Origin: Vezdaea acicularis
Taxonomy: Eukaryota
Reading direction: 5' to 3'
Length of the DNA: 50,661 nt
Assembly (NCBI GenBank): GCA_026025075.1
Contig: JAPEUI010000113.1
Coordinates: 1-50,661 of the forward strand
Part shown: positions 24,117 through 46,900 of the stretch, one piece after another
Layout of the letters: each line of letters starts with the position of its first letter
How positions within the stretch are numbered: position 1 is the first letter of the stretch
The notes under the pieces: model-generated
The model's input: the letters and a program-made list of their open reading frames with translations, nothing else
Told to the model about the DNA's origin: nothing
The model's database searches: none
Position numbers and translations under genes: made by a program

Positions 24117-24791
24117 GAGTCGTCAAATAGAAAATCTAAGTCGTTACCATGTATTCTACGATTGCGCCGGAATGGCAGACTGTCAAGTGCTTGTACGCAA
24201 AGAAAGATCCTGTGGAGATTCAATGGGGCAGTAAGAGAAGCCTTGTTCCGATATCTTATCACGATTGTACCAGGATTTAAAGCTATGTACTGCGCCTCTA
24301 GTGGCGCGCTAGGGAGCACCGTAACGTTGTGTTTGTGCAGATTTTTGGTTTCGACGTCCTCGCTTTCTTAGCTTCCTAACTGCGCCCAAATACACCAGCG
24401 CACGAGGAGCGCTTGGATCAGTGTATTGAGATACAAGATAGCGAATTTCATGTCATGGCCGATGAGTTATTTTCTCGCTCTGTCGGCAACGCTGGTGCGG
24501 AAACTCCAAGTTTGGCGTTTGCGGCATTTCTTCTAGAAGAGATTCTCAAACACGCCTGTGTCACGGTGTGCACCGCCGCAACATGCACATTGCAGACTCA
24601 TAAAGACGATGTGACCACAGCACGGCCTTCTAAGATGGTCGGATCGCCACTACATCATACGTACAAGTCGCTCGTTATCGAAGACGTCGCTCTCTTCTAT
24701 CTCCTCTGCTTACACCCTGGTTGAGCACCTCACGTTACTCCGTCAGTCCCTTCCGTTATCAAGTCTTGAATCACAAGACCAAGCAGTCATC

Positions 24792-26663
24792 ATGCTTGAG
24801 TTTCTTCTTCTACAACTGCTCGTACTTCCTCTAGTCTTGGCCGTGAGCCCGGCACCTCCGTATACTAGTGATACCAAGATTGACCCCAACTTCAAATGCT
24901 TCGGCGACATACCAGATGTCCTAGCTGGACAGCCCTTCAAGAAGTCCGACTATAGCGACCTTACAGCTCTCTGTGCTACAGCTAGTGACGGCCACCCTAC
25001 GTTAGGATGTGGTGGCTGCAGTGGTACCAGTCCCGGCACCTGCTTACGTGCTAATGCTTCGACTGAATTATTCGACTGGCAATACTGGCCAGAAGAGGGA
25101 AACGTCACAATCCCCATCAGTCTGTCGTGGCTCTGCTTGAGCCAGTGCACCTGCAACGGACAAGCACCAAATTACAACGCTACCGCAGAGCTCTCACCGC
25201 AATCAGAGCAGCTTGCCAGGTTGGTAATCCCGCCTTACGATTCTGCTGGAATCGCCGACGTCTACTGTGTTGGTCCTGTCCCAGACACCGACCCTGGCAA
25301 CGTCAACTTCCAAGCAGCCAACTACGCCGACCTCACCGCCGTCTGCGGCATCTCCGATAATACCCCCTCTGTCGGCTGCGACTGCAGCGGGCCTGGCGGC
25401 AACCTCACCTGCGATGGCTCGAAAGCCTCCTCAGGCATGTACAACAGCTTCCAGCGTCCCCCAGGCAATTCTGTGCAGCCTTTTTCCCTACCATTTCTGT
25501 GCAAGCAGCTCTGTACTTGCCCAAATCAATCACTCAGCGTTGGCATGGAGGACTGGCTCACCGTCTGGAGCGACGGCTCTAAGAACGCCACTCTCCTTAA
25601 CGACACCTCCGTCGTCGAGCTGATCCCCGCCTCTGACTTCCGTGACCTCTCCAGCATCTCTGACCAGCTCGCCGCAGACTACATAGCCGGGCCGAACGCC
25701 ACAAACGTCGACCTTATCTGGACCGCCGCCTACAACTCTTCCTACTCAAACCTCACCTCCCCTTCAGACACTGAAGACCCCGCAGCCTCCTGCGCCAACA
25801 TCACCGACCTAACCGCCTACTCAAACTGCATAGCGCACTACTACCCCAACCAGGATCCGTGCGCTGGAGCCGCCGACGCCACCTCCTGCGCCGCCGTCTA
25901 CTACAACTCCACTTGTACCCGCCCCTCCACCAACGCCTCCACCGACCCCCTCCTTGCCCCCTACCTCGCCTGCATCCAAGCGACCTTCGGCCCCTCCCCC
26001 TGCGCCGCCGCCGTAGACTACTGGAGCTGCGTCGCCAGCCCAGACGCCAACAACCTCCCTACGCCGCCCGACCCCTGCTTTAACGCAACCGACTACGTCA
26101 CCTGCACCGACTTCAACTACAACACGACCGTCTTCCTGCCCTACCGCCCTCCCACCGTGAATGCCACCGACTACTTCTTCCGCGACACCTCCGCCTTCTA
26201 CACCCCCACAAACGGCACCAGCCTCTCCTGGGACTATACGCGCAACATCTACTTCCCCGCCACCTGGAATGGCTCTTACATGGGCGCCATCAACGAAACC
26301 CTCCTCCCCAACGGCACCATCAACGCCACCCTCAACTACGAGCCCGCCCCCTGCAACTGCTCCTACGTCTCCTTCGCCTGCTTCTTCGCTACCAGCGGCC
26401 GCGTCTGGGAGCCCCCCGATCGCCAGTTTGCGAATTTGACCGTTTGCGATCAGGCCTTGAATGGCTCGGCGAATGACGTGACGGGTAGTAGTGCTGCTGG
26501 CGGCAATTCGAGTAATTCGAAGGCGGGCGGTGATGGGAGTGCGAATGGGACGGGCTCGGATCAGGGGCTTAGAGCCAGGAGGGCGAAGAGGAGTAAGGAT
26601 CTGTGGGAGGTGGAGGGGGAGGTGAGGAGGGAGATGCCGCTCGGGAGGGAGAGGAGACGTTAA
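24792..26663 (+). CDS. Secreted Cys-rich, N-glycosylation-rich repeat protein of unknown function
   Basis: 623-aa single ORF with signal peptide MLEFLLLQLLVLPLVLA, internal Cys-pattern repeats, many N-x-S/T sequons, PCNCSYVSFACF..GRVWEPP block and strong codon bias. Confidence 0.85.
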   Translation: MLEFLLLQLLVLPLVLAVSPAPPYTSDTKIDPNFKCFGDIPDVLAGQPFKKSDYSDLTALCATASDGHPTLGCGGCSGTSPGTCLRANASTELFDWQYWPEEGNVTIPISLSWLCLSQCTCNGQAPNYNATAELSPQSEQLARLVIPPYDSAGIADVYCVGPVPDTDPGNVNFQAANYADLTAVCGISDNTPSVGCDCSGPGGNLTCDGSKASSGMYNSFQRPPGNSVQPFSLPFLCKQLCTCPNQSLSVGMEDWLTVWSDGSKNATLLNDTSVVELIPASDFRDLSSISDQLAADYIAGPNATNVDLIWTAAYNSSYSNLTSPSDTEDPAASCANITDLTAYSNCIAHYYPNQDPCAGAADATSCAAVYYNSTCTRPSTNASTDPLLAPYLACIQATFGPSPCAAAVDYWSCVASPDANNLPTPPDPCFNATDYVTCTDFNYNTTVFLPYRPPTVNATDYFFRDTSAFYTPTNGTSLSWDYTRNIYFPATWNGSYMGAINETLLPNGTINATLNYEPAPCNCSYVSFACFFATSGRVWEPPDRQFANLTVCDQALNGSANDVTGSSAAGGNSSNSKAGGDGSANGTGSDQGLRARRAKRSKDLWEVEGEVRREMPLGRERRR

Positions 26664-26914: not shown

Positions 26915-29517
26915 CTACCCCTGCAAACTATTCAAGACAGTCGTCATGCCCACGCTGCCCAGATCGTCCCTACGCATGATATACGGCCTCACATCATCGA
27001 GCAGCAGGGCGCTCAGCGCGCCAGTCCTCAGACGATCCTTCAACGCCTCCGGCTTGACGACGAAGATATTACCAATTTCCGGCAGCACATCGAGCGAGAG
27101 GCGGAAGGAGGCGGTGGTGGGCCAGGCGCGGAGGAGGTCGGTGTAGCGCTTGATGTCCTCCTGGACGGAGAGGGCGCCGGTGAAGTTGACCTGGAACTTC
27201 TTGAAGTGGTCGAGGAGGGTAGAGCGCACGCCGATGCCGAGCTCGGTGAGGAAGGCTTCGAGGTGCTCGCCTGTTAGTGTTTGTGAGATTTGGTTGTGGG
27301 CTTTGGTCAGGAAGGCGCAGATGGCGCTGCAGGTGGAGGTTTGGAGCGATTCGAGCCAGGCGTGCCCGCGGTCGAGGGCGCCGTCGCGGGGGCGGTAGTC
27401 GAGCTTTTTTTGGGCGGCGAGGAGCTTGCTGAGCCAGCTGAGGATGACGTCGATCGTTTTCTGGATGGCGCTGTTGATCTTTTCGTCCATGCGGTGGAGG
27501 GAGCTGTCGCGGGCTTTCTCCATCTCGCGCCGGACGGTGAGGTTCGAGGTTGCGAGGGGGACGAGGAGGGTGTTGATTGAGCGGATCATAAGCTGTTTGA
27601 TCCTTATAGCGGATCGTAGGTTGGGTAGATAGGATAGATCAGGCTCAGTCTTCGTCACTTCTTGAGAGGCAGCAAAGTCGTTGGCACTAGCGGTTGTTAG
27701 TAATATATCGTGCGAGCTTTTAGAGGGAGAGCATACGCATCAAGTGCCGTCTCGACGTAGATCTGTCCCATCTTCGATAGCAGCAGATTCAGCAGCGCTG
27801 CAACATCTTTTGGCGTCTCACCGCCACCATTGAGTTCTAGGCCTCGCCCAACTCCCTCGGCGAGCCACTTTATCATCCTCATAGAATTTGCTACGCTCAG
27901 GTTGCCGTCCTCTTCGGTAAGCTCAACATCCTGTTTCTTGCCACTGTCGGTTTCCTTTACTCTGGCAATACGCAACAGCATGGACTTCTGCTCGGGAGTA
28001 AGATCGGCTGAATCTAGCCGCTCCAAATAAGCGTCTTTTGCTGAAGCAAGCATTTCACTCCCTTGCTTCGCTAAGCTGCCCATAAACGTCGTAGGGAGCT
28101 TCTTTCGACGATCGTGGAAGATTGTGAATCGGAAGAGAATAGAGGAGTACAGCTCGTCCAAACTCTTCCTTTCTCGGTCGATGTATGATGAGCCAAGAAG
28201 ATACGGCACAAACAGATCGTCAAGTTGCTGGTCGAGAGCAAGGGCGGTTTGCGGCGATATCGGATCTGGGCGCTCGGTCAACCCATGGTCTTTCAGCTCT
28301 TCTATGAGCGTTACTATGCAACTTCTTGCCGCTTGTAGAGACCGTAAGAATGCGAGAGAAGAGACCGCGTTCGCCTTATCGAGGACCATCTCGAGGCGTT
28401 GCTGTATCGACTGCTGGAAGACACGCTGTAAGAAACGGTTGAGTACCAGCTCATAGAAAGGAAACGCTCGTTTAATGATTCCAGATTCTTCCTGAGCCAC
28501 ATCCTTGACCTCATCGATAAGGTTTTGGAGACTGGGCTCGACTCCTGGCGGCGTAGCATCTGGGTCAGCGAGGCGGGCCCAAGTCTCGCTATCACTGGCA
28601 ACTTCTTCCGTAATAAGCTGGTTCCGGTCAATGAAGAACTGATGTTGATTGACGAAAAGTCCAATAACATTTGAGCCCCCATTGAAGTCGTGTAGAACAG
28701 TCGCACATTCCCTCATGCCTTCCAGGTTCTGTCTCCGGTAAAAGTCATCAAACTGCTTAAGGAGATCTTTCTCTAAGGTCTCGAGGAATTTCTCGATCGC
28801 CTCTCTTGTATTAAAACCTCTACGATGTCCGTTGACCTCCTTTACCCCACTCTTCCTTCGTGCTCCGTTCGTCTGAGCCCAGCTTTCAGGGTCAAGTCTT
28901 TGGCTTAGTCGCATGAGTTGCCTCGCAATGACCGCGCACCGCACTTTGGCATCTCCATCGCCTTGTCTTCTCACTTCTTCGAGGGATGTAAGAACTCCCC
29001 CTTGACTGACGTCTGTCCAACATTGTACCAGAAACGCAGCATCTTTTGCCCTCCTTGCTTGTCTATCATACTCCTCGAGCTTCTCTCCAATTCGGAGAGC
29101 CGCATTTCCTCCCTTGCTACTATTGCTGTCCGTCACCGAGTTGAGATCGGTATCGAGTGATTGAAAGTTGTCAACTGTGCTATCTAGCTTTTTCCCTAAC
29201 GTCTCCAGTGTCTGCGAATGTTGTAATTCTGCTCGTCTGACGGCGGTAAGCAATTCAGTCTCGCGTGTACTTTGGTCGTCAGATAGCTCCCCCAGTCGTG
29301 AGAGGGCGTGCTCGAAGCTCCGTATAAGAGGCTTTGGGTCAAATTCGGCATCTGTGTTTGAGCGGCGACTAGAGGTTATAGCGCTCTCCGACAGAGACTC
29401 AATGAAGTCTTTGACTATGAAGTCTTTGCTAGATAAGTTCTCGAGTGTGAAGCTCGGCCCCTTTGGAAAGAGCGCCCGGGGCGCAACGCCCGGAGCTATG
29501 GAATTGTGGGCCGACAT
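26915..29517 (-). CDS. SEC10: Exocyst complex component Sec10
   Basis: SFTLENLSSKDFIVKDFIESLS, FDPKPLIRSFEHAL, FVNQHQFFI, FLQRVFQQSIQQRLE, QKKLDYRPRD, LLDHFKKFQVN; one intron at about 27688-27736 joins the two ORFs. Confidence 0.93.
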
Positions 29518-35680: not shown

Positions 35681-38600
35681 ATGATCTCTAAGCCCGATGA
35701 ATGTTCTAGATCTTGTCACAACCCATCACGCTGCCAACTACCGATCGAGTCTGGAATGGCACTCAGCTATGACAAGCCACTGCCGGCCCCCGGTGGTAAC
35801 ACAAACAATGATATCAACGAGGGTCAACGTCGGGATGGGGATTATAAGTTCTCATCAGGAGTTGATAAGAAGCGGGTGCAGGCATCCAGAAACCAACGTT
35901 CAGAATCGATAAGCAGCGATGATGAGGAGTGGTGGTCGGATGATGACCCTCTCGCCAGTAAGGCATCGAAGGATACAACAGTTCCGAGTATGAATGGTTA
36001 CGGGAGCAATCAGGCTGTGGTAACAGCTGCCCCCTCAAAGGCTGCTCCTCCTCGAGCATATTCGGTGGTAAAGCTGAAAAGGGAGAAATCTAAAGGGAGA
36101 CAAAGAGCGCAGAATGCATTAGCAGGCATTAAGGTCATCACAGACATCTCCGTCAAAAGCTATCCTCAGCCCGTCCGGGCGCAACCAAAGACGCAGGATG
36201 CCAAACGAACAGTCCTGGAAGCCCCACAGCGTGGCGAGGCATCGAATGGGCCACAAACCGCTTGGACGGATCTCTTCAGCAAAACACCCGAGCAACAGCA
36301 GAACCGAAGCCCGAAGTCGAGAAGAAGACAAGCAGAGGCGGGAGTTCCGGTTGTGGACAAAAAATGGAAGGCCCAAACAAGAAACAACGCTCCTGCTCCG
36401 GCACAAGTTGGACAATTTATCAATTTGATGGATTTAGCAGGCTTGAACGACACTAAAGAGAAGGACAACGACAAGATGTCGGATTGGCTTCGGGGAATAA
36501 AGGAAGCTACACGACAGAAGCAAAGGAGCCGTGGCCATCGACGGATACCAACAAGTTCAAGTAACGGTTCTTCGAAGGGAAAATCTTCAAGAGACCTTGC
36601 AAAAGCTACGTACACCAGCCAACAGTCGCAAGGCCGTTCTGAGAAAATAGCTTCTGAGCTAGTCACAGGCGGAGGGCTTGGCCTCATCGTGGCAGAAGCA
36701 ACGAAGAACTACCCAGAAAACTCGTCCAAGGGCTTCTTGGGACATGGCAGAAATCCGAGTAATAACTCAAAAGGTCTTGCCATAGAGCCTCTCCGTCTGG
36801 GAAGCTCAATTTCCCCAAGTGACGGAAAAATATTTATCGGCCTCTCTGTTCCCTCCGCAAAGGCTTCAGAGTTTGCCTTGAGCCCTGAGTCCGCCACTGC
36901 AGCTCATCCTTACCATAATGAAGCTCACGATCCGAATTCAGCAACTACACCGACTATTCTAGTCACGTCCGCCGAGGCTAATTCTAAGTGGGAAGGGCCA
37001 CAAAGAGGTGCTGATCTATCGTCGCAGAAGGCTAGAGCTCGCTCTAGCATATATTCAACGGTGACGCCTTATGGGGAGCAACCCAACAATGCAGTTATAC
37101 CGCCTATGCCAACTAAGTTCGCAAAAGCTCACCAACTTGCAACGGTTTCCAAGCAACATGAGGGCGTGCCACGAGAGTCTGTAATAACAGTTTTCGAAGA
37201 AGACGAAATGACGCCCCGGACTGGTGAGCCACATAGTGCTATATCCAGCATATTCTTTGGCTCAAGACTGAGGGCTTTGAGTATCGATACTTTGGCAAAA
37301 GAACGCAGTTCGAAAGGCTGGTGGGACCACATTAAGAGTCCTTTCATGCTCTCCAGGTCAAGCACAAACGCGTCGAGACATGGGCTGAGTCCAACCGAGG
37401 ATGCACCTGAGCTTCCGAGTTTAGCGCATGCCGCCGAGATAGCACAACGTCACGACGACATGAAGAAGAAAATCTGGCAGAAACAGTCTCCAGTGAGCCC
37501 TGAAGATGTGGGACCAAAAAGTGGGCATACGACTATTTGGACTGACCTCAGCGGATGGGAAGCCGAGCGAGAAGCAAAATTTCAGGGTCAGCACAACGAG
37601 ACTGCTAGGGGTATAGAAGCTTCGCCAAATGGCACATCTGTGGTGGGTGACTCGACGGGCAAAGCGGCGCCTCTAGTCCCAATATCGGAGCATGAAGGTT
37701 TAAACTACTCTTACTATCATCCAGAGGAGAAAAATGAGCAATGGCTATCACCTGGTAACCCTACCTCGCCGCCGCGCTTTTTGGAATCACCCCAAGTGAA
37801 GTCGCCAGACGATGTTCTGAGCCCGAACGATCGAGAGGTGCCCTTCATTCTAGCAGATGACTCCAAGAAAGTCGAGACAGAACGACAGGTTCCCGACCCT
37901 GTGGCTCCGAAGAAAATCCGCCCACTGTTCATAGACACGTCGCTAAAGCCCGGTCAGCAGACAACTCGAGCAGTCCCTGGATCGCCGCTACCAGACGAAG
38001 TTGAAACACCCACAGTTCACGAAGCAAATGCAGTTCGCTATGTTCAAGCTCGAAGCAGTATTCAGTCTACAGACAAGAAGCCCATCTCTGCCATGAAGAC
38101 TCCGCCGAAACCTGATTCCTATTCACCTTTTCCGCCTCCATACACCGGTCGAAAACCACCCCAAGTGATCATCAACAACACGTACTCGACCAGCCATAAC
38201 TACGTACAATCACCTGGGCCTCTGTCTGCTGGACTACGTAGAGCCATAGGCGCCAACCGCGGGGGGCAGATGACCCAAGTCCCACTCACTCCAGCAGCGG
38301 CAGAAAAGGGGCCGAAGTCCGAGTTTGAACATCCTTCTCAGCAGTGGCCACCTGTAGCGCTACCCGAAAGGCCAGCCCGACGAAGGCTCTGTTTCGGAAA
38401 GACGAAAGAGGACAAGAAGAAAAAGAAGGTGTGGTTTTGGTGGCTGGGAGGGGGGATCGCGCTCCTCATTCTGATCGTGGTGCTCGCGATGACGGTCCAC
38501 AAAAAGTCCAGCAACCCGGTCATCTCCTCCCAATGGATGAACAACACGGGCTATCCACCCATGCCCACCGGAGTCGCCACCATCGTCCAGCCCAGCGCCG

Positions 38601-39661
38601 TAGCAGAAAACAGCGGCTGTATCGCCCCCTCGACAATGTGGAGCTGCGCCCTGCCTAAAGAGCTACAAAGCGGCATCTTGCCCAACCGCCCCGACGAGCC
38701 CAACTTCACCATCGAAATCCTCTACCGAAACGGCACTCTCCCGTCCTCGAAAAGAGCAGCGAAGCGCTCCCTCCGGAGCTTCAGCAGCCGCATCCTCCAC
38801 CCCCGCGACGCCGCCACCGACGCAAACTTCACGCCCGACCCCTCACCCCCCAGCGTCGAAGAAATGGCCTTTCTGGGCAACACGACCGACGGCGTCGTCG
38901 CCCCCAACAAAGCCGGCGAACCCACCCCCTTCTACGCCTCCTTCCTCTCCAACCCCAACACCCCCTCCTCCCCCCTCCTACACAAACGGGACCAATCCTT
39001 CCCCGACGCCCTCAGCGCCATCCCTCCACCAGCCACAAACCCCGACGGCACAGCCCACGCCGCCACCCTCCTCCCCCTTCCCCTCTCCCAGCCCCTCCGC
39101 CTCTACGACCGTGGCCTGCAGACAGAACACTACGCCTTCTACACCTACTTCGACCGCGCCATCTTCCTCTCCGCCGACATCTTCAACGACTCCTCCGCCG
39201 CCCCCTCGCCCGCCGACGCTACCGGCGGCGCGCTCGAGAAAGCCGCGCGAGTCAGGTGTACGTGGTCGCAAACCCGCTTTTTGGTGCAGATCTGGACGCA
39301 ACCTAAACCCGGGAAGAGTCTGCTTGGGAATCACTCTGTCCAATCCCCCTCCGCCACACCAAGCACATCCCAAAAACAACCAGGTTCCTTCCCCTACCCC
39401 CTAACCCTAACACTCGACCGACACGGCGGCTCTCTCACCCAGAAATTCCTCTACTGCTACGGTCTCGACTCCAACCAGCAACCCCTCCCGTCCCAGAAAC
39501 AGTTCATGCAGGAACAGGTGGGCGCGGGAGGGCAGCTGGTAGGCGGGGGCTCGGGGCCGTTGGGGGGGAATGTCTCGCTGGAGCAGGGCGGGTGGGGCGG
39601 CATCGATGGTGGGAGTGGGGGATGTAGCTGTCGGTGGCAGAATTGGATTGGGACGGATTGA
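35681..39661 (+). CDS. Large uncharacterised type II membrane protein (disordered N-terminus, single TM, Cys-containing C-terminal domain)
   Basis: ORF of about 1330 codons; first ATG at 35681, alternative at 35756. KKKKK precedes TM VWFWWLGGGIALLILIVVLAM; C-terminal blocks GYPPMPTGVATI, GCIAPSTMWSCALPKE, RCTWSQTRFLVQIWT, PGSFPYPLTLTLDRHGG, GGCSCRWQNW. Confidence 0.82.
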   Translation: MISKPDECSRSCHNPSRCQLPIESGMALSYDKPLPAPGGNTNNDINEGQRRDGDYKFSSGVDKKRVQASRNQRSESISSDDEEWWSDDDPLASKASKDTTVPSMNGYGSNQAVVTAAPSKAAPPRAYSVVKLKREKSKGRQRAQNALAGIKVITDISVKSYPQPVRAQPKTQDAKRTVLEAPQRGEASNGPQTAWTDLFSKTPEQQQNRSPKSRRRQAEAGVPVVDKKWKAQTRNNAPAPAQVGQFINLMDLAGLNDTKEKDNDKMSDWLRGIKEATRQKQRSRGHRRIPTSSSNGSSKGKSSRDLAKATYTSQQSQGRSEKIASELVTGGGLGLIVAEATKNYPENSSKGFLGHGRNPSNNSKGLAIEPLRLGSSISPSDGKIFIGLSVPSAKASEFALSPESATAAHPYHNEAHDPNSATTPTILVTSAEANSKWEGPQRGADLSSQKARARSSIYSTVTPYGEQPNNAVIPPMPTKFAKAHQLATVSKQHEGVPRESVITVFEEDEMTPRTGEPHSAISSIFFGSRLRALSIDTLAKERSSKGWWDHIKSPFMLSRSSTNASRHGLSPTEDAPELPSLAHAAEIAQRHDDMKKKIWQKQSPVSPEDVGPKSGHTTIWTDLSGWEAEREAKFQGQHNETARGIEASPNGTSVVGDSTGKAAPLVPISEHEGLNYSYYHPEEKNEQWLSPGNPTSPPRFLESPQVKSPDDVLSPNDREVPFILADDSKKVETERQVPDPVAPKKIRPLFIDTSLKPGQQTTRAVPGSPLPDEVETPTVHEANAVRYVQARSSIQSTDKKPISAMKTPPKPDSYSPFPPPYTGRKPPQVIINNTYSTSHNYVQSPGPLSAGLRRAIGANRGGQMTQVPLTPAAAEKGPKSEFEHPSQQWPPVALPERPARRRLCFGKTKEDKKKKKVWFWWLGGGIALLILIVVLAMTVHKKSSNPVISSQWMNNTGYPPMPTGVATIVQPSAVAENSGCIAPSTMWSCALPKELQSGILPNRPDEPNFTIEILYRNGTLPSSKRAAKRSLRSFSSRILHPRDAATDANFTPDPSPPSVEEMAFLGNTTDGVVAPNKAGEPTPFYASFLSNPNTPSSPLLHKRDQSFPDALSAIPPPATNPDGTAHAATLLPLPLSQPLRLYDRGLQTEHYAFYTYFDRAIFLSADIFNDSSAAPSPADATGGALEKAARVRCTWSQTRFLVQIWTQPKPGKSLLGNHSVQSPSATPSTSQKQPGSFPYPLTLTLDRHGGSLTQKFLYCYGLDSNQQPLPSQKQFMQEQVGAGGQLVGGGSGPLGGNVSLEQGGWGGIDGGSGGCSCRWQNWIGTD

Positions 39662-40039
39662 TGAGGGTGGGGGGATGGAATATGTGTGTGGTCGGGAAGA
39701 AAGGGGGAGCCTTTTATTTAAAAATTCACTTTTTTTGTTTTCTTTTTGTATGGGCATTGCATAGCGTTCGGTAGGGTCCATGGGAGATATCCTGCATTGC
39801 ATTGGGGTTGCGTACGGAGAGGGGGGCGGGGTCTTTATTCAGTAGAGAATGCCAACGGAAGATATTCTTGTTTGTGCTTGACGTGATGTTCTACCTGGTA
39901 AGATTACAAAGTCGTATACGGTTCAAAGATACGGGTTCGTGCACCAGCCATCCCACATAGCCATCTTTTTCCCGATACCACACATTTCCCCTACTTTCCT
40001 CCGCCCCTGTCTCCCTTCACTAGGTGCAGGTCTTCAATT

Positions 40040-40687
40040 CTAAACAATGACGATGTTCTCGGCCTGTGGGCCCTTCGCCCCCTGCGAGACGTCGAACTCC
40101 ACCTTCTGGCCTTCGGTCAATTCTCTGAAGCCTTGCGTCTGTGATGTAGCAGCAAGTGTCAGTCAGCCATACTCTGTGCTAATACCCATATACTCGACAA
40201 CACCCCGCTTCCTAGATAAGCTTGTACGGTCCACTGCTTGCCTCGCCCAGGGATGGGTTGAGGAAACCTCTGAGTGCTGAGCTGGTAAGGTGGAGAACCT
40301 CCCCCACATCCTCTGCTCAACAGGGTAGGGGCGAGGAGGGCAAGTCTGGAGTATGAATTTGGGGAGGGTATAGTAACAGACGCGAAGGGATCGTAGAATA
40401 GAGCAAAGAGATAGAGTTAAACCTACCGCAATATTGCTATAATGCGCAAACACGTCCGGCCCACCGCCATCCTGTTCAATGAAGCCGAATCCCTTCTAAC
40501 AACCCGCCTCATTCATCAGTTCGCGGACATTTCAGGGCATGGGGGTCAACAGAAGCGAAGGCTTTTCCATGAGATAGATAGACATCGGGGGAAGAATTGG
40601 GGGAAAAGACGGCGAAGGGAAGATTGTGTTGTGTGAGAGCAAAGGACGAACCTCCGAGTTAAACCACTTGACCACACCTGTAGCCAT
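40040..40687 (-). CDS. Stand-alone cold-shock domain protein (CspA family), 67 aa, 3 exons
   Basis: Exons 40687-40652, 40495-40427 and 40138-40040 with phase-0 introns (GTTCGT..TTAG; GTAGGT..CTGAC..ACAG) splice to [67 protein letters not shown], containing RNP1 (KGFGFI) and RNP2 (VFAHY). Confidence 0.95.
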
Positions 40688-40788
40688 CCTGGAACGAACC
40701 GGGGCGACTTGACTTGCTTGAAGATAGTGATCGATTGAATGAGTGAGTCTCGTCCCTCACTTGTCTCACTTGTCTAGTCTATTAAACC

Positions 40789-40800
40789 GTATATATATCT
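40789..40800 (-). promoter_or_regulatory. Putative TATA element of the csp gene
   Basis: ATATATATA tract about 100 bp upstream of the csp ATG at 40687. Confidence 0.4.
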
Positions 40801-40987
40801 CTCGAAGAGCGCGCGGGAGAAAGATTTCACTACGAAGAAGTTGTACAAAGCCAGAAGAAAGACTCAAAGCTCCCCAGAAAAAAAGAGCTCAAGAGCGGGG
40901 TAAAAAAAAAAGCCCGCTTCCAAACGGAGTGAGGGGTAAGGTAGGTAGGGTGGTACAAGGTACGAGTACAGTAAGCAAGCAACACGG

Positions 40988-41001
40988 CCCCCCCCCCCCC
41001 C
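40988..41001. repeat. Poly-C/poly-G homopolymer (14 bp) upstream of the csp gene
   Basis: Directly visible run of C; nearby short CAG/CTG tracts at about 41048-41063 and 41135-41145. Confidence 0.7.
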
Positions 41002-41765: not shown

Positions 41766-44700
41766 TCAATCAAGCCCACTCCCCTCCCCACTCTCACTAC
41801 TCCCACTCCTCCCACTGACACTCGCACTGCTACGACCAGAGGAGAAATAACTCTGATCAATCTTCAAGATCCACTCGACCTTCTCGCGCTCGCTTCTCGC
41901 CGCGAAGAGCCAGGTATTCCGCTCTGCATAGATGGCGAGGACGTTTTCCCTGACGCCGCCGCCGCCGCCATGCGATCCAGTCGCACCGGCATGTCCACCT
42001 GCGTTGGCACCTCCAGTCCTCTCAACACCAGTGCTACTACCACCGCTGCTACCACCACCACCAGCAGCAACAAGCAACAACTTAATATCCGGCGAATGAT
42101 CCACGCGCGCATTCGTAAGATTGACGACCAAAACCTCCTCTCCACCCGGCACGGCATGAACATGGAGATAGGGGCGGCGTAGCTCGACGTAGCGGCGGAC
42201 CCAGCGCGTGTGGGCCTCGTTCGGGCTGAGGAGGTAGCCGCCTTTGAGCAGATTGGGGTTTTTGGGGATGAGGCGCACTTCGGCGACGAGGCGGGGGGCG
42301 GGAGTTGGTTCTGCGTTCGGGGAGGAGGAGGTTGGGGCGGTGGAAGGGACGGAGGTGGAGGGGGCACGATGCGGGATAAGGCCGTTGGTGGGCGGTTCGG
42401 TGTTGGCGCTCACAAGGATGACTTCTCCAGGATCTTTGCGCGCTGCCCACAAGCCCAGGAACTTGCGCAGGAGGTCTTGCTGGCGTTGATCGAGCTCCGG
42501 GGCGGGGCTTGAGGCGGTAGTAGAGGCGGTGGCGGCGTTGTTGCTCGGGCGGAGGGCCCGCGAAGAGAGCACGCCGCGGGCGGTCTCGATCTCAGCGACG
42601 CGGCGGCGACGGCGGCGCTGCGCGATGTAGTCGCGGACGAGCGAGACGCCGCGCGGGGCCCAGTTGGTGAGGAGGTCCTCGCCTTTGACGTAGTCGTAGG
42701 AGGTGTTCATGCGCCAGAGGTCGACGGCGCGCTTGGCGGAGGTGGGGCGGATGGCGAGGCTGAAGGTGGAGACGGTGGAGCGGAGGGAGCGGGTGGGTTG
42801 GGGGGTAAAGAGGGTGAGGAGGCGGTAGGGGGAGGAGAGGGCGGAGCGGGTGTGGGCGCGGGGTTGGATCTGGGCGGTTAGGTGGAGGGAGAAGGTCATG
42901 GGCGCGGCGAGGCGGGGCGAGGTGGCGGTCCAGAGGAGGGAGAAGCGGATGCGGTAGTTGGGGGCGGTGGTGCGGTCGAGGAGGAGGGAGTCGTGTAGAG
43001 AGCTGTCCCATTGGCCCGTGAGCGTGGCGTTGCAGGTGCCATTTGCGTTTTGGTGAATCGTAGGCTGCGAGAGGAGCTTTAGGGGGATTTCAGGAGAAGG
43101 TGTGCCCAGGTCTTGCGCTTTGTTGGAGGGGTCCACGAGCTGGATGTGACCGACACGGAGGGAGGAGACGTCAGCCCATTCGAGAGTTTCGCCGGAACTG
43201 TGGGTGATGTTAACGACGATACGGCGTTGGAGGCCTTGGTGGAGTTGGTAGCAGCCCGGGTCCAGTTCGTGGTGTTGCAGCACTTCGACTGGTAGGTACT
43301 CGCCAGTCTCGGAGAGCTCTTGGATCTGCACTCTCGTAAACACGTCGTGCCGCTCTTCGGTATAAAACTCTCGCTCGGCGATGCGAGCGCTCTTCCTCCT
43401 ATGTTTCGGAGGCTGAGGCGCGTCTCGAATGCTGTCCCAGCTGAGCAGCTTGTCAAGATGCATCGAGGTAACCTTCGCGAAAATGGAGACTCGCAGGGAA
43501 GCGCCTCGAGAGCCAGTCTGTGGAAGGCTCATGCTATGGACACTCTCAAATTTGACTGGCCCTTCATCAAACTGACTGATCATCTGCGTAGTTGTTGCAC
43601 CACCCTCATCAGAGATACCAGGGATGAAAAGCTGAGCGTGTACATCTGTGCCCTCGCGCTCCGCGAACCCGACCATATCATGCATGACAACATTGAACTT
43701 GAGTGTCGAGGACGGCGCTTGAGCAGATGAGGGCTCCAGGGACAGCTTCACAATCCCAATGACGCTGCAAGTATACGGCGAGATGACATCCAAGGAGAAG
43801 TCTTGCACCCTCGACTCGAATACTGCCGTAAGTGGAATATCTGCGTCTCCAATAAGCGAGAACTGCGGCATGCAGGCCTCTGAGAAGGGGCTGCTGGGGA
43901 GGAGGTGCTGCAGGTACTCTGGCCGATCCAGGTACTGGTGCATCTGGCGCATCTGACGAACACGGACTTGAAGCTTCTCGAGCGACCAGAGGTGGATGAC
44001 ACTATTCTTGTAGTCGATGACCCGGACGGCAACGCATGGCTTTGGCGCGCTGTCCAGCATTTCGTCGTCTTCGCCCGAGATTCCATTCAGCACCAAGTCG
44101 TAGGATGACGCAAAGGTGTGTCCGACGTCGACCAAGGCGAACTGGAAGACAACGTCTTTGTCCATTTCCTGGCTCATGACCTGCGCTTGTTTCAGCGTGG
44201 CGGCGTGCTGCAGGATAGCTTCAGCCATTCGGACATATCGACGCTGACGCCAGTGTTCAATGACCGAGGAGGCTAACTTAATCTCGCCCTCAGTTAGTCC
44301 ATCGCCAGGGTTCTTCTTTGGCGATTCGGAAATCTCCCGAATCCGAGTCTCAAACTCCTCCTTCTGTAGCTGAAGCTGCGCCTGCATCTCCTCTTTCGCC
44401 GCTCTCAGGCTCTCCTCCATCTTCTCCTTCTCGGCTCGAATCAGGTCGATCTCGACGTTCGAGGCCTCGGCAGCTTTCAGCTTCTCTTGATAGTCCTCTT
44501 TCTGCTTTTCTAGCTGATTCTGCATATCTTCCCGCACCAGTCGCAACCGCTCGTCCACCTCGCCATACTGAGGCGTCGAAGGCATAGTGAGCGCGGTATC
44601 TAGCGAAAAGTTGTCTATCGTCCCCGTAGAGGCGTACTTCTCCCGGACAGGGTAAGAAGTCATCGAATCCGTGTCATCTTCTTCTCCATGTCTGCTCTCA

Positions 44701-46900
44701 GGTCGCCCTCTCCTTCCAGCTCGCACCCTCTGCACATCCTCGAACAGGTTGTCCAGCTCGTCATCCGTGAGCTGCGCAATCTTCTGATCAGGGCCTAACA
44801 GCGCACTCGCCGCTTCCCTCCTTGCCATCGACCAATCCGTATCTCGCGAGTTCTTGTTCATAGGTGCCGGCGAATCGGGCCTACTGCTCCCCTCAAAATC
44901 CGACAAGGCCCGACTGTGAGACCGTTCGTGGCCAAAGCCGTTCGAGAGTCGCGGACCGGGCGAGCCCGAGTTGCTTGCGAGCACAGAGTGTCTGAGAGAG
45001 CTCTGGGTCTCCGCTCGCTCAGCACGAGCCTCTTGTGGATTATTAAAACGGAAAATGTGAAAGTCGCCCAGGATGACACGGTAACCGCTCCGTAACCGCT
45101 TCGGTTCGTCGATACGAAGGCCATTTACCATGACAGCGGCACCCTCATTAGGCACGACGGTCACAACACCATCCGTATTCATAAAAGTACAGTGGTCGTG
45201 TAGTATCCTAGAACCGTTTAGTCTGATTTCAGACGTTGTCGCTGTCTCCACGTTCCCAACCGTAGTCGTCCCAGGCTTCAGATTATAGACTAGACACTCT
45301 GCCAGCAGAGGGTCGTCGCTTAAGTTGACCAGATGAGGCATCTTTTTAGGTGTATGTAGCCCCACGAAGCCCTTTTCTATGCTGATCCCAAGCTCTTCCA
45401 GCGCCGCTTCGCGCTCTTTGTGTATCTGCTCTGTCTTCTGCAGCTTCTGCTCCCACGTCTGATTCAGGTCTTGGTAGAGTTTCTCGGACTGGTTCAGCTG
45501 TTCTGCGATTTCAGCTTTCGAGACCTTCTTCACCGATCCATCGGCATTCGTGATAGTGACGAATTGCTTTTCGAGAGGGGTGCCCTCAGCGTAGACTTCT
45601 CCGGGGATGCCTTCCACAGACCCACCACCGCTCAGCTTTGATCGAAGCTGTGCGAGCTCCTCCTTCAACTCCCGTATCATCCGAGCATTTGGATCTTCGT
45701 TGACAACGGCGTGGTTCTTGATCCTCTTTGCCGAGTCGGCGTATCGTAATGTAGACAGAGTCTCCTCAAAATTGATATCAGCGGGAGATATCGCCGCAAT
45801 CATAGCCGTCATGCTGTTCCCACCTAACGAGTCCTTGAGAAGCCATGTCAGGACGGAATCTCGATAAGGAACCATCGACATATTCCTCTTCTTGCCGGAT
45901 GACAAGTCAGCAAGCGCTGCAATGACACGGCCGAGTGTCGACAAAGATCGATTGATCTCCGCTCCCTCCTTCAACCTCGCGCCAGTCGCGCCCGTCGAGG
46001 TGGCCCGTTCGGAACCCGCCAAATCGACCAGACTGATCTTCGCGACCTTCTCCGTATCCATGCGCGTCTCGACATCGTGTCTCTTCTGGGTCAGCGTCAA
46101 CGTGAAGACGGCATGTGAGCGACTCGACGTCTCGTTCATATTCGTCGCCGCTACTGTCCTAGCCTTATTGCCCTCATCCATCAGATGCTCAATCTCCGTA
46201 AACGACCGGACCACGAGCTTGGCCAGATCTTCGACGTAGGGCCCCGTAGATGGATGTTCTCGCACTTTGAGATTGCCCTTCGTGGCCGGGTTCAGCAGGT
46301 CTCGCACCCGCTCGTTGTAGATTTCCAGATACGACACCTCGACCGTACAGCTCAGGTTCGCGTCCTTCTGCTGCTCCGTGATGCGCTCGAACATGTCCTG
46401 GCAAATCCTGGGGATGACCCCCGCCTCCGCTCCATACCCCATCATCGAGTACGACTTTCCCGAGCCGGTCTGCCCATACGCGAAGATGCAGTTGTTGTAA
46501 CCCTGGAAGGCGTTGTCCAGCAGGGGTTTCCCCAAGTCGGCGTGTAGATTGTCCTGACCGGCAAAATGTGGATCGTTTTTGTCGAAGCTCCAGTAACTCC
46601 TGTCGAACGCAAACACCTTCTGCCCGTCCACCTTCCCACCCTTGCTGTTCCGCAGTCGCTCTTCGGCATCGGGAGGGGGGATGAGGATAGTCTGGGACTC
46701 TTTCATCTGGACGACGCATTTTGCATGGCGGTCCAATTCTAAGCAACACAGCGAGTTTAGCCGGCGTCATTGGTGAGGGGCCCCCCTTGGTCTGGCTGGA
46801 GATCCAGCCTGTAGCCCCATAACACGACTCACTTACCTCTATTATTGAAAGGCCGCACCCTCACCACCACCTTAATGTTCCCACCGCCCGCTGGCGCCAT
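41766..46900 (-). CDS. Kinesin-3 family motor (Unc-104/KIF1/UncA-like) with FHA and C-terminal PH domains
   Basis: Exon 46900-46837 (MAPAGGGNIKVVVRVRPFNNR), intron 46739-46836; P-loop GQTGSGKS, switch motifs NETSSRSH and LVDLAGSE, FHA region (PHLVNLSDDPLLAECLVY..ILGDFHIFRFNNP), PH domain (WVRRYVELRRPYLH). Confidence 0.96.

Follow-up and report, generated by a model that had tools for sequence, protein, structure and literature searches.

The minus strand of the window (by which we mean the whole stretch of DNA that we analysed, about 50.6 kb) carries a small cold-shock protein (csp) gene at 40687-40040, with three phase-0 exons and two GT-AG introns, that encodes a product of 67 amino acids. 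Exon 1 (40652..40687, minus strand, as are all parts of the gene) has 36 nt, or 12 codons from the ATG, and encodes the N-terminal strand of the cold-shock domain. Intron 1 (40496..40651) has 156 nt, lies in phase 0, begins with GTTCGT and ends with AG, and has the branch motif CTGAT. Exon 2 (40427..40495; 69 nt, 23 codons) encodes both RNA-binding motifs, KGFGFI and VFAHY. Intron 2 (40139..40426) has 288 nt, is also in phase 0, runs from GTAGGT to AG, and has the branch motif CTGAC. Exon 3 (40040..40138) has 32 codons and the TAG stop, and it encodes the domain's C-terminal half. Together, the exons give a coding sequence of 201 nt plus the stop codon.

The 5' sites of both introns (GTTCGT and GTAGGT) are of the fungal type; the GTTCGT of intron 1 is probably not the form seen most often in fungi. 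By eye, both introns contain a branch motif of the CTRAY type, with its A placed 20 nt before the 3' AG. Around the gene, we saw a few weak signals by eye on the minus strand: a TATA-like run (40789..40799) that resembles the consensus and is about 105 nt upstream of the ATG, T/CT-rich tracts further upstream than that run, and an AATAAA (39834..39839) about 200 nt downstream of the stop, which is a possible poly(A) signal. From the gene's sequence, we infer that it is transcribed and spliced.

The genes on both sides of csp are eukaryotic, and they lie within 0.4 and 1.1 kb of it. The stop codon of a kinesin-3 gene is 1.1 kb upstream of the csp ATG, on the same strand, and a 1326-codon open reading frame (ORF) on the plus strand (35681-39658) converges on the csp gene and ends 0.4 kb from its stop. 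The window also contains genes for Sec10, an eIF3 subunit, NF-YA, a LIM-RhoGAP protein, a ubiquitin-conjugating enzyme, and a 3-beta-hydroxysteroid dehydrogenase. We found no Pfam domain in the 1326-codon ORF, and its look-alikes are from Ascomycota. Its relatives were drawn from the 7999 candidates that shared the most words with it, and none of the candidates that we scored was a match from Metarhizium or Aspergillus. All of its named relatives are distant: the best is from Bisporella sp., with 39% identity across 36% of the query, and the others are from Xylariaceae (33%) and from Echria (44%), with 18-36% of the query covered. (The annotated form of this ORF has 1301 amino acids, P0168; the relative from Echria is named 'glycoprotease family-domain-containing', and clusters of look-alikes were automatically named 'Glycoprotease family protein'.) Two other ORFs, at 24615-26663 on the plus strand (682 codons) and at 118-1824 on the minus strand (568 codons, stop to stop, as for the first), have no Pfam match at E <= 1e-5. 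The 3' part of the kinesin-3 ORF includes a GC-rich patch (42200-42999), where the GC content is 0.67-0.71 (the mean for the window is 0.536) and the GC skew is strongly positive.

Two of the three exons are recognizable as parts of a cold-shock domain on their own. The Pfam model PF00313, whose gathering score is 27 bits, matches exon 2 alone with 33.0 bits (profile positions 12-33) and exon 3 alone with 40.2 bits (positions 36-64 of 66). We also built our own hidden Markov model (HMM) from 74 bacterial cold-shock proteins (Csps), and we ran it on every stop-to-stop piece from the six reading frames of the window. Only three pieces matched with E < 1; they lie on the minus strand in collinear order and cover consecutive positions of the model: exon 1 matches positions 1-12 (E = 0.0045), exon 2 matches positions 13-35 (E = 2.3e-12), and exon 3 matches positions 35-67 (E = 1.6e-18). 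The boundaries of these matches fall at the proposed splice junctions, and the spliced product matches the same model with E = 1.3e-48. In other words, the match of the three exons is far beyond chance.

The spliced protein is a single cold-shock domain of 67 amino acids from ATG to TAG. The stop codon comes directly after the domain, with no auxiliary region, and the six-frame scan with the HMM found no second cold-shock domain in the whole window. Residues 1-67 align to residues 1-67 of bacterial Csps of the same length. The family's two nucleic-acid-binding motifs are RNP1 (KGFGFI-type) and RNP2 (VFxHx-type); both are intact, both lie in exon 2, and their columns are at least 90% conserved in an alignment of 15 bacterial Csps. 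When we compared exon 3 to proteins with solved structures, all 23 of the 23 matches were to proteins described as cold-shock proteins, as CspA-E, or as a cspA-regulating RNA chaperone. We therefore place the predicted protein in the bacterial-type CspA family (PF00313). The first-pass annotation of this DNA had proposed that three short exons are joined by phase-0 GT-AG splicing into a complete Csp without extra domains. Our gene model has exactly the coordinates that it gave, the HMM boundaries agree with them, and the product is indeed the domain alone.

To find relatives, we compared a 40-amino-acid query, which is the unspliced stop-to-stop frame that holds exon 3, to a collection of 5.8 billion proteins. 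Among proteins of 22-70 amino acids, 131 of 133 candidates were matches. Of the 120 that were listed, 64 are named by organism: 63 are from Actinomycetota and one is from Pseudoalteromonas, and none of the 64 is named for a fungus. The matches from Actinomycetota are mainly from Streptomyces, Kitasatospora, and Embleya, with fewer from Actinopolymorpha, Actinoallomurus, Pontimonas, and one metagenome-assembled genome (MAG) of Cellulomonadaceae. Among proteins of 71-2000 amino acids, 47 of 59 candidates were matches, and the organism-named ones are from Kitasatospora or Streptomyces only. Among the matches listed, neither length band has a match to exon 3 that is named for Metarhizium.

Bacterial genomes gave a similar picture. 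In a set of genomes from 185,579 species of bacteria and archaea, at least 597 of at least 601 pattern matches encode relatives. Of the best 80 of these (at least 597) loci, 75 are from Streptomycetaceae, 3 are from other Actinomycetota, and one each is from Chloroflexota and Pseudoalteromonas. (These loci were picked by their likeness to exon 3, and the search patterns came from a mostly actinobacterial alignment, so the sample is biased in favour of this result.) Full csp reading frames could be extracted from 74 of the 80 loci, and we compared these to the spliced protein. The best 11, which are all from Streptomycetaceae, are identical at 59 of the 67 residues. Nocardia has 57 identical residues, Lentzea has 56, Actinopolymorpha has 55-56, Embleya has 52, and Actinoallomurus has 50; lower values were seen for Cellulomonadaceae (44), Pseudoalteromonas (42-47), Pontimonas (42), and Pelolinea, from the Chloroflexota (40). 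Nothing closer than 59/67 was found among the 316 proteins that we compared (312 of which were matches from the Csp searches) or the 74 ORFs from the bacterial loci.

An exhaustive search with HMMER of 1.84 billion cluster representatives gave 739 matches to exon 3 at E <= 0.001, and within this set, no single stretch was over 83% identical to exon 3. The top-scoring representatives (P0172-P0194) have 149-1095 amino acids and 2-6 matched stretches each, which are tandem cold-shock domains. We considered whether short unnamed matches, such as P0049, P0237, P0287, and others, might be intron-bearing orthologues, and none of them is evidence for a fungal orthologue. For example, the odd N-terminus of P0049 is what would be expected from a one-base frame shift in a typical bacterial csp.

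Our maximum-likelihood tree has 101 rows and 67 columns: besides the spliced protein, it includes the proteins of the 74 loci and, from the 64 organism-named matches, 26 that we picked for their taxonomic spread. Likeness to the query governed which sequences came into this sample. The window's protein falls inside a clade of 62 rows (support 95/82), 53 of which are labelled as Streptomycetaceae, and it is sister to the other 61. The clade is nested among rows from Kitasatospora, Streptacidiphilus, Actinopolymorpha, and Actinoallomurus. At 0.17, the end branch of the fungal protein is long (the median is 0.019). We then held the window's protein with 7 outgroup rows (Micrococcales, Pseudoalteromonas, and Pelolinea), outside the 93 others. 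An AU test on the 67 columns, with the group named after the tree was seen, did not reject this placement (p = 0.438, log-likelihood difference of 2.42).

The first-pass annotation had remarked on the protein's likeness to Streptomyces Csps, and this holds up: the best Csps of the Streptomycetaceae are of equal length and agree with it at 59 of 67 residues, and the family accounts for 75 of the best 80 loci. It had also named nesting within the Actinobacteria as a check. Here the result is mixed, as the maximum-likelihood clade (95/82) agrees with nesting while the AU test retains the outgroup placement. On similarity, an actinobacterial, Streptomycetaceae-like source is the best reading. The donor family and the timing of a transfer are matters that we infer, and because the alignment has only 67 columns, it does not fix the donor family.

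The csp gene does not have the composition of a bacterial gene. The GC content at third codon positions (GC3) is 0.69; five host ORFs have values of 0.53-0.73, and 30 bacterial csp genes have values of 0.79-0.93. The nucleotide identity of the coding sequence to bacterial genes is at most 75.5%, and the identity at third positions is around 0.5. Relative to 10 bacterial genes, dN is 0.12-0.14 (about 0.13), and dS either takes values of 1.6-3.1 or is saturated beyond calculation; when the bacterial genes are compared with each other, dS is 0.12-0.62. The ratio of the two rates (omega) is about 0.04-0.09. Given the host-like GC3, the saturated dS, and the low dN, the gene is old, has been in a eukaryotic genome for a long time, and is under strong purifying selection.

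The similarity to bacterial DNA is confined to the csp gene. When we compared the window to the 80 bacterial loci with blastn, all 153 matches were within 40049-40497, and with tblastx, the 15 commonest spans were within 40031-40696 and coincided with the exons (for exon 1, the matches were at 40652-40696). By blastn, the DNA of exon 2 is 78-82% identical to bacterial csp, and the DNA of exon 3 is up to 89% identical to Streptomyces csp genes over 65 nt. We looked for leftover bacterial DNA around the gene, and in these comparisons to 80 loci, the introns and flanks have no bacterial likeness. There is also no step in GC content at the csp locus. As a side observation, for two of the 12 loci whose blastn alignments were printed (L036 and L067), the alignment extends 9 nt past exon 3 into the end of intron 2 (40139-40147, minus strand). 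Nothing else inside either intron hints at exon-like sequence, and this match is probably due to chance: in ungapped comparisons of the intron's last 9 nt to 66 bacterial genes, just 1-4 of the 9 positions match.

The two introns have the same kinds of signals as introns in the host's own genes. By eye, the first intron of the kinesin-3 gene has about 105 nt (46743-46846, minus strand; GTAAGT...CTAAAC...AG), and an intron in Sec10 has about 57 nt (27687-27734, minus strand; GTATGC...CTAAC...AG). The csp introns (156 and 288 nt) are longer than either; their length and the 5' site of intron 1 are points against the explanation that we prefer below. We found no further copies of either intron in the window, and the only repeats within 39900-40900 are of the size expected by chance (12-14 nt), so within the window, introner-like or duplicated introns are ruled out. 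Another idea, that an intron hosts an RNA gene such as a snoRNA, was dropped, as there was no Rfam match at E <= 1 within 39700-41000. The exon junctions, GAG|AAG and GCG|ACG, are poor protosplice sites. Bacterial ancestors of the gene would have had no spliceosomal introns, so if the gene is of bacterial origin, then both introns were gained after the transfer. That the introns post-date the transfer had already been proposed for this gene, and it follows directly from a bacterial origin. The same annotation had argued that the gene is not a contaminant, and the introns, the eukaryotic neighbours, the host-like GC3, and the lack of bacterial likeness outside the exons all agree with this.

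The csp gene appears to be unannotated in its source. The window's own Csp is absent from both length bands (22-70 and 71-2000 amino acids) of the 5.8-billion-protein collection, while the product of the neighbouring gene is present in that collection, which is why we think that the csp gene, in particular, lacks an annotation. Standard annotation can miss a 67-codon gene that is split into exons of 12, 23, and 32 codons. More broadly, if such small split genes can be missed, then Csps of the bacterial type may be more widespread in fungi than is now apparent.

Putting these results together, we think it very probable that an actinobacterial Csp was taken up by a fungus of the Pezizomycotina, that the gene gained two introns, and that the protein is probably an RNA chaperone. 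Specifically, a functional nuclear gene of the fungus would encode a stand-alone Csp of the bacterial type, with 67 amino acids and one OB-fold cold-shock domain. It would descend from an actinobacterial csp gene, closest in kind to those of the Streptomycetaceae, which reached the fungal lineage through a horizontal transfer that was not recent. Since then, its codon composition would have come to match that of the host, all of the bacterial sequence around it would have been lost, and two spliceosomal introns, in phase 0 and with signals like those of the host, would have been gained. Csps bind single-stranded RNA or DNA on the surface of the OB fold and prevent or melt secondary structure, which is useful in the cold and in other stresses. 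By analogy, the most likely function of the fungal protein is as an RNA chaperone: it would bind single-stranded RNA and melt its secondary structure, as a chaperone or an anti-terminator-like factor. It might act under cold, freezing, or oxidative stress, as reported for CRP1 of Metarhizium (see below).

Could the gene have reached the fungal contig by bacterial contamination or by a chimeric join? The protein's very high identity to Streptomycetaceae is what contamination would give. But the reading frame is broken by two introns of the spliceosomal type, precisely where the stretches of homology end, the nucleotide identity is at most 75.5% and the third-position identity is around 0.5, the flanks have no bacterial likeness, and there are eukaryotic genes within 0.4 and 1.1 kb and no GC step. 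We consider this explanation to be effectively refuted. An ordinary eukaryotic cold-shock-domain gene (like Y-box, Lin28, or the plant cold-shock-domain proteins, CSDPs) that was inherited vertically would share PF00313 with the window's gene. This is refuted as well, by architecture and by similarity: the protein ends right after the domain with no auxiliary region, the solved structures that match exon 3 (23/23) are of proteins described as cold-shock proteins, CspA-E, or the cspA-regulating RNA chaperone, and the identity to Streptomycetaceae is 88%. Alternatively, the gene might be a decaying and unexpressed relic of a transferred gene, and the apparent introns might be insertions that broke it. 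The missing annotation fits with this, as does the greater length of the csp introns as compared to the two host introns that we examined. However, the three pieces are all in phase 0 with the start and stop codons intact; the GT, AG, and branch motifs are at the right distances; both RNA-binding motifs are intact; and omega is about 0.04-0.09 despite the saturated synonymous change. Strong purifying selection argues against a dead relic, and we view this explanation as very improbable.

A more serious alternative concerns when the gene arrived and how. It might belong to an older and wider lineage of fungal Csps that goes back to one ancient transfer from bacteria, followed by vertical descent with losses or by transfer from fungus to fungus, in which case the gene would not have been gained by this host's lineage in particular, and other fungi might share the introns. 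The saturated synonymous sites, the full amelioration, and the two introns all indicate an old event, and the fungal end branch is long (0.17 versus a median of 0.019). Genes with cold-shock domains in Aspergillus nidulans and Cladonia grayi (in the part of PMC6652019 that was available) and CRP1 in Metarhizium also point this way. On the other hand, 12 of the 14 fungi in that same part of PMC6652019 have no such genes, so vertical descent would require many losses; no fungus-named protein is among the exon-3 matches listed; and if the split were very ancient, one would hardly expect an identity as high as 88% to present-day Streptomycetaceae. We consider a wider fungal lineage to be a genuine possibility but not the favoured one. 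The opposite possibility is that the window's gene is a separate capture of a Streptomycetaceae-type csp, independent of CRP1 from Metarhizium and of the cold-shock-domain genes of Aspergillus and Cladonia. We can suggest this only tentatively, as it is rather unlikely. If it were true, ascomycetes that live in soil or on rock would repeatedly have acquired the same very small RNA chaperone from bacteria. Both of the long introns would also be de novo gains, since neither has a source copy in the window and the junctions are not protosplice sites, and they could be dated against the transfer. More broadly, independence from CRP1 would suggest that selection has repeatedly favoured a bacterial RNA chaperone in fungi that are exposed to stress.

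Whichever fungi share it, a bacterial gene that was taken up by a fungus and gained two introns, which is the explanation that we prefer, would be a clean, small, and easily tested case of domestication: the donor group is recognizable, and both introns must post-date the transfer. This kind of case is already known, both from CRP1 in Metarhizium and from other genes that gained introns after they were transferred from an actinobacterium to a fungus. The first-pass annotation overstated the novelty of the gene, as CRP1, a small eubacteria-like Csp, had already been described and functionally tested in Metarhizium. In the literature that we searched, which did not include Fang & St. Leger 2010 or Zhang et al. 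2019, we found no paper on an intron-bearing Csp of the actinobacterial type in a fungus.

Among known proteins, the closest to the window's are the Csps of Streptomycetaceae, such as L018 (from Actinacidiphila soli), L026 (Streptomyces albireticuli), and L019 (Streptomyces aureus). These have the same length of 67 amino acids, 59 of 67 residues in common with the window's protein, the same RNP1 and RNP2 motifs, and the same single domain. Unlike them, the window's gene has two spliceosomal introns and eukaryotic flanks, its GC3 is lower, and its synonymous sites are saturated. Y-box proteins, Lin28, and plant CSDPs also have PF00313 and bind nucleic acid, but they have added regions such as zinc knuckles or glycine-rich or charged tails, whereas the window's protein is the domain alone.

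CRP1 is the best-known fungal counterpart. Like the window's gene, it is fungal and encodes a small Csp of the bacterial type; we set the two side by side by description only, and as far as can be told, the window's host is not Metarhizium. A 2010 report by Fang and St. Leger (Environ Microbiol 12:810) is said to have found that CRP1 is cold-induced and that it rescues an E. coli csp deletion strain, and, among the fungi then surveyed, the domain was reportedly present only in Metarhizium and Aspergillus clavatus. In the available portion of PMC7776561, CRP1 of Metarhizium robertsii / anisopliae is described as a "small eubacteria-like" fungal Csp that stabilises RNA, guards against freezing, and adds to virulence, and such responses are called unique among fungi. 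The available portion of PMC6658566 adds that stress induces Crp1 and that, in E. coli, it melts the secondary structure of RNA.

Cold-shock domains are otherwise sporadic in the fungi for which we have counts. In Additional file 9 of PMC6652019 (one part of that source), the count for the cold-shock-domain family is 0 for 12 of 14 fungi, 1 for Aspergillus nidulans, and 2 for Cladonia grayi; the term 'Cold shock' is absent from 11 other supplementary files of that paper. As Cladonia has two of these genes, a lichen-forming host for the window's gene would be no more than a lead. Lichtheimia corymbifera has a single PF00313 protein, according to the accessible part of PMC4133162. The genes of these three fungi resemble the window's gene in their sporadic occurrence, and from these partial sources they are known by counts alone.

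For the introns, the best precedent is an alpha-amylase that moved from an actinobacterium into the Agaricomycotina (Da Lage et al. 2013, PMC3584928). According to the part of that paper that was accessible, the amylase belongs to another gene family and its recipients to another fungal phylum, it has many introns instead of two, and the introns vary little in size, as compared to 156 and 288 nt in csp. Intron gain after transfer has also been documented more generally in early-diverging fungi, at least in the available excerpts of that work. Overall, the two cases are alike in the kind of donor and recipient, in the insertion of introns after the transfer, and, in the accessible text of PMC3584928, in having little protosplice-like sequence at the insertion sites, as at the csp junctions.
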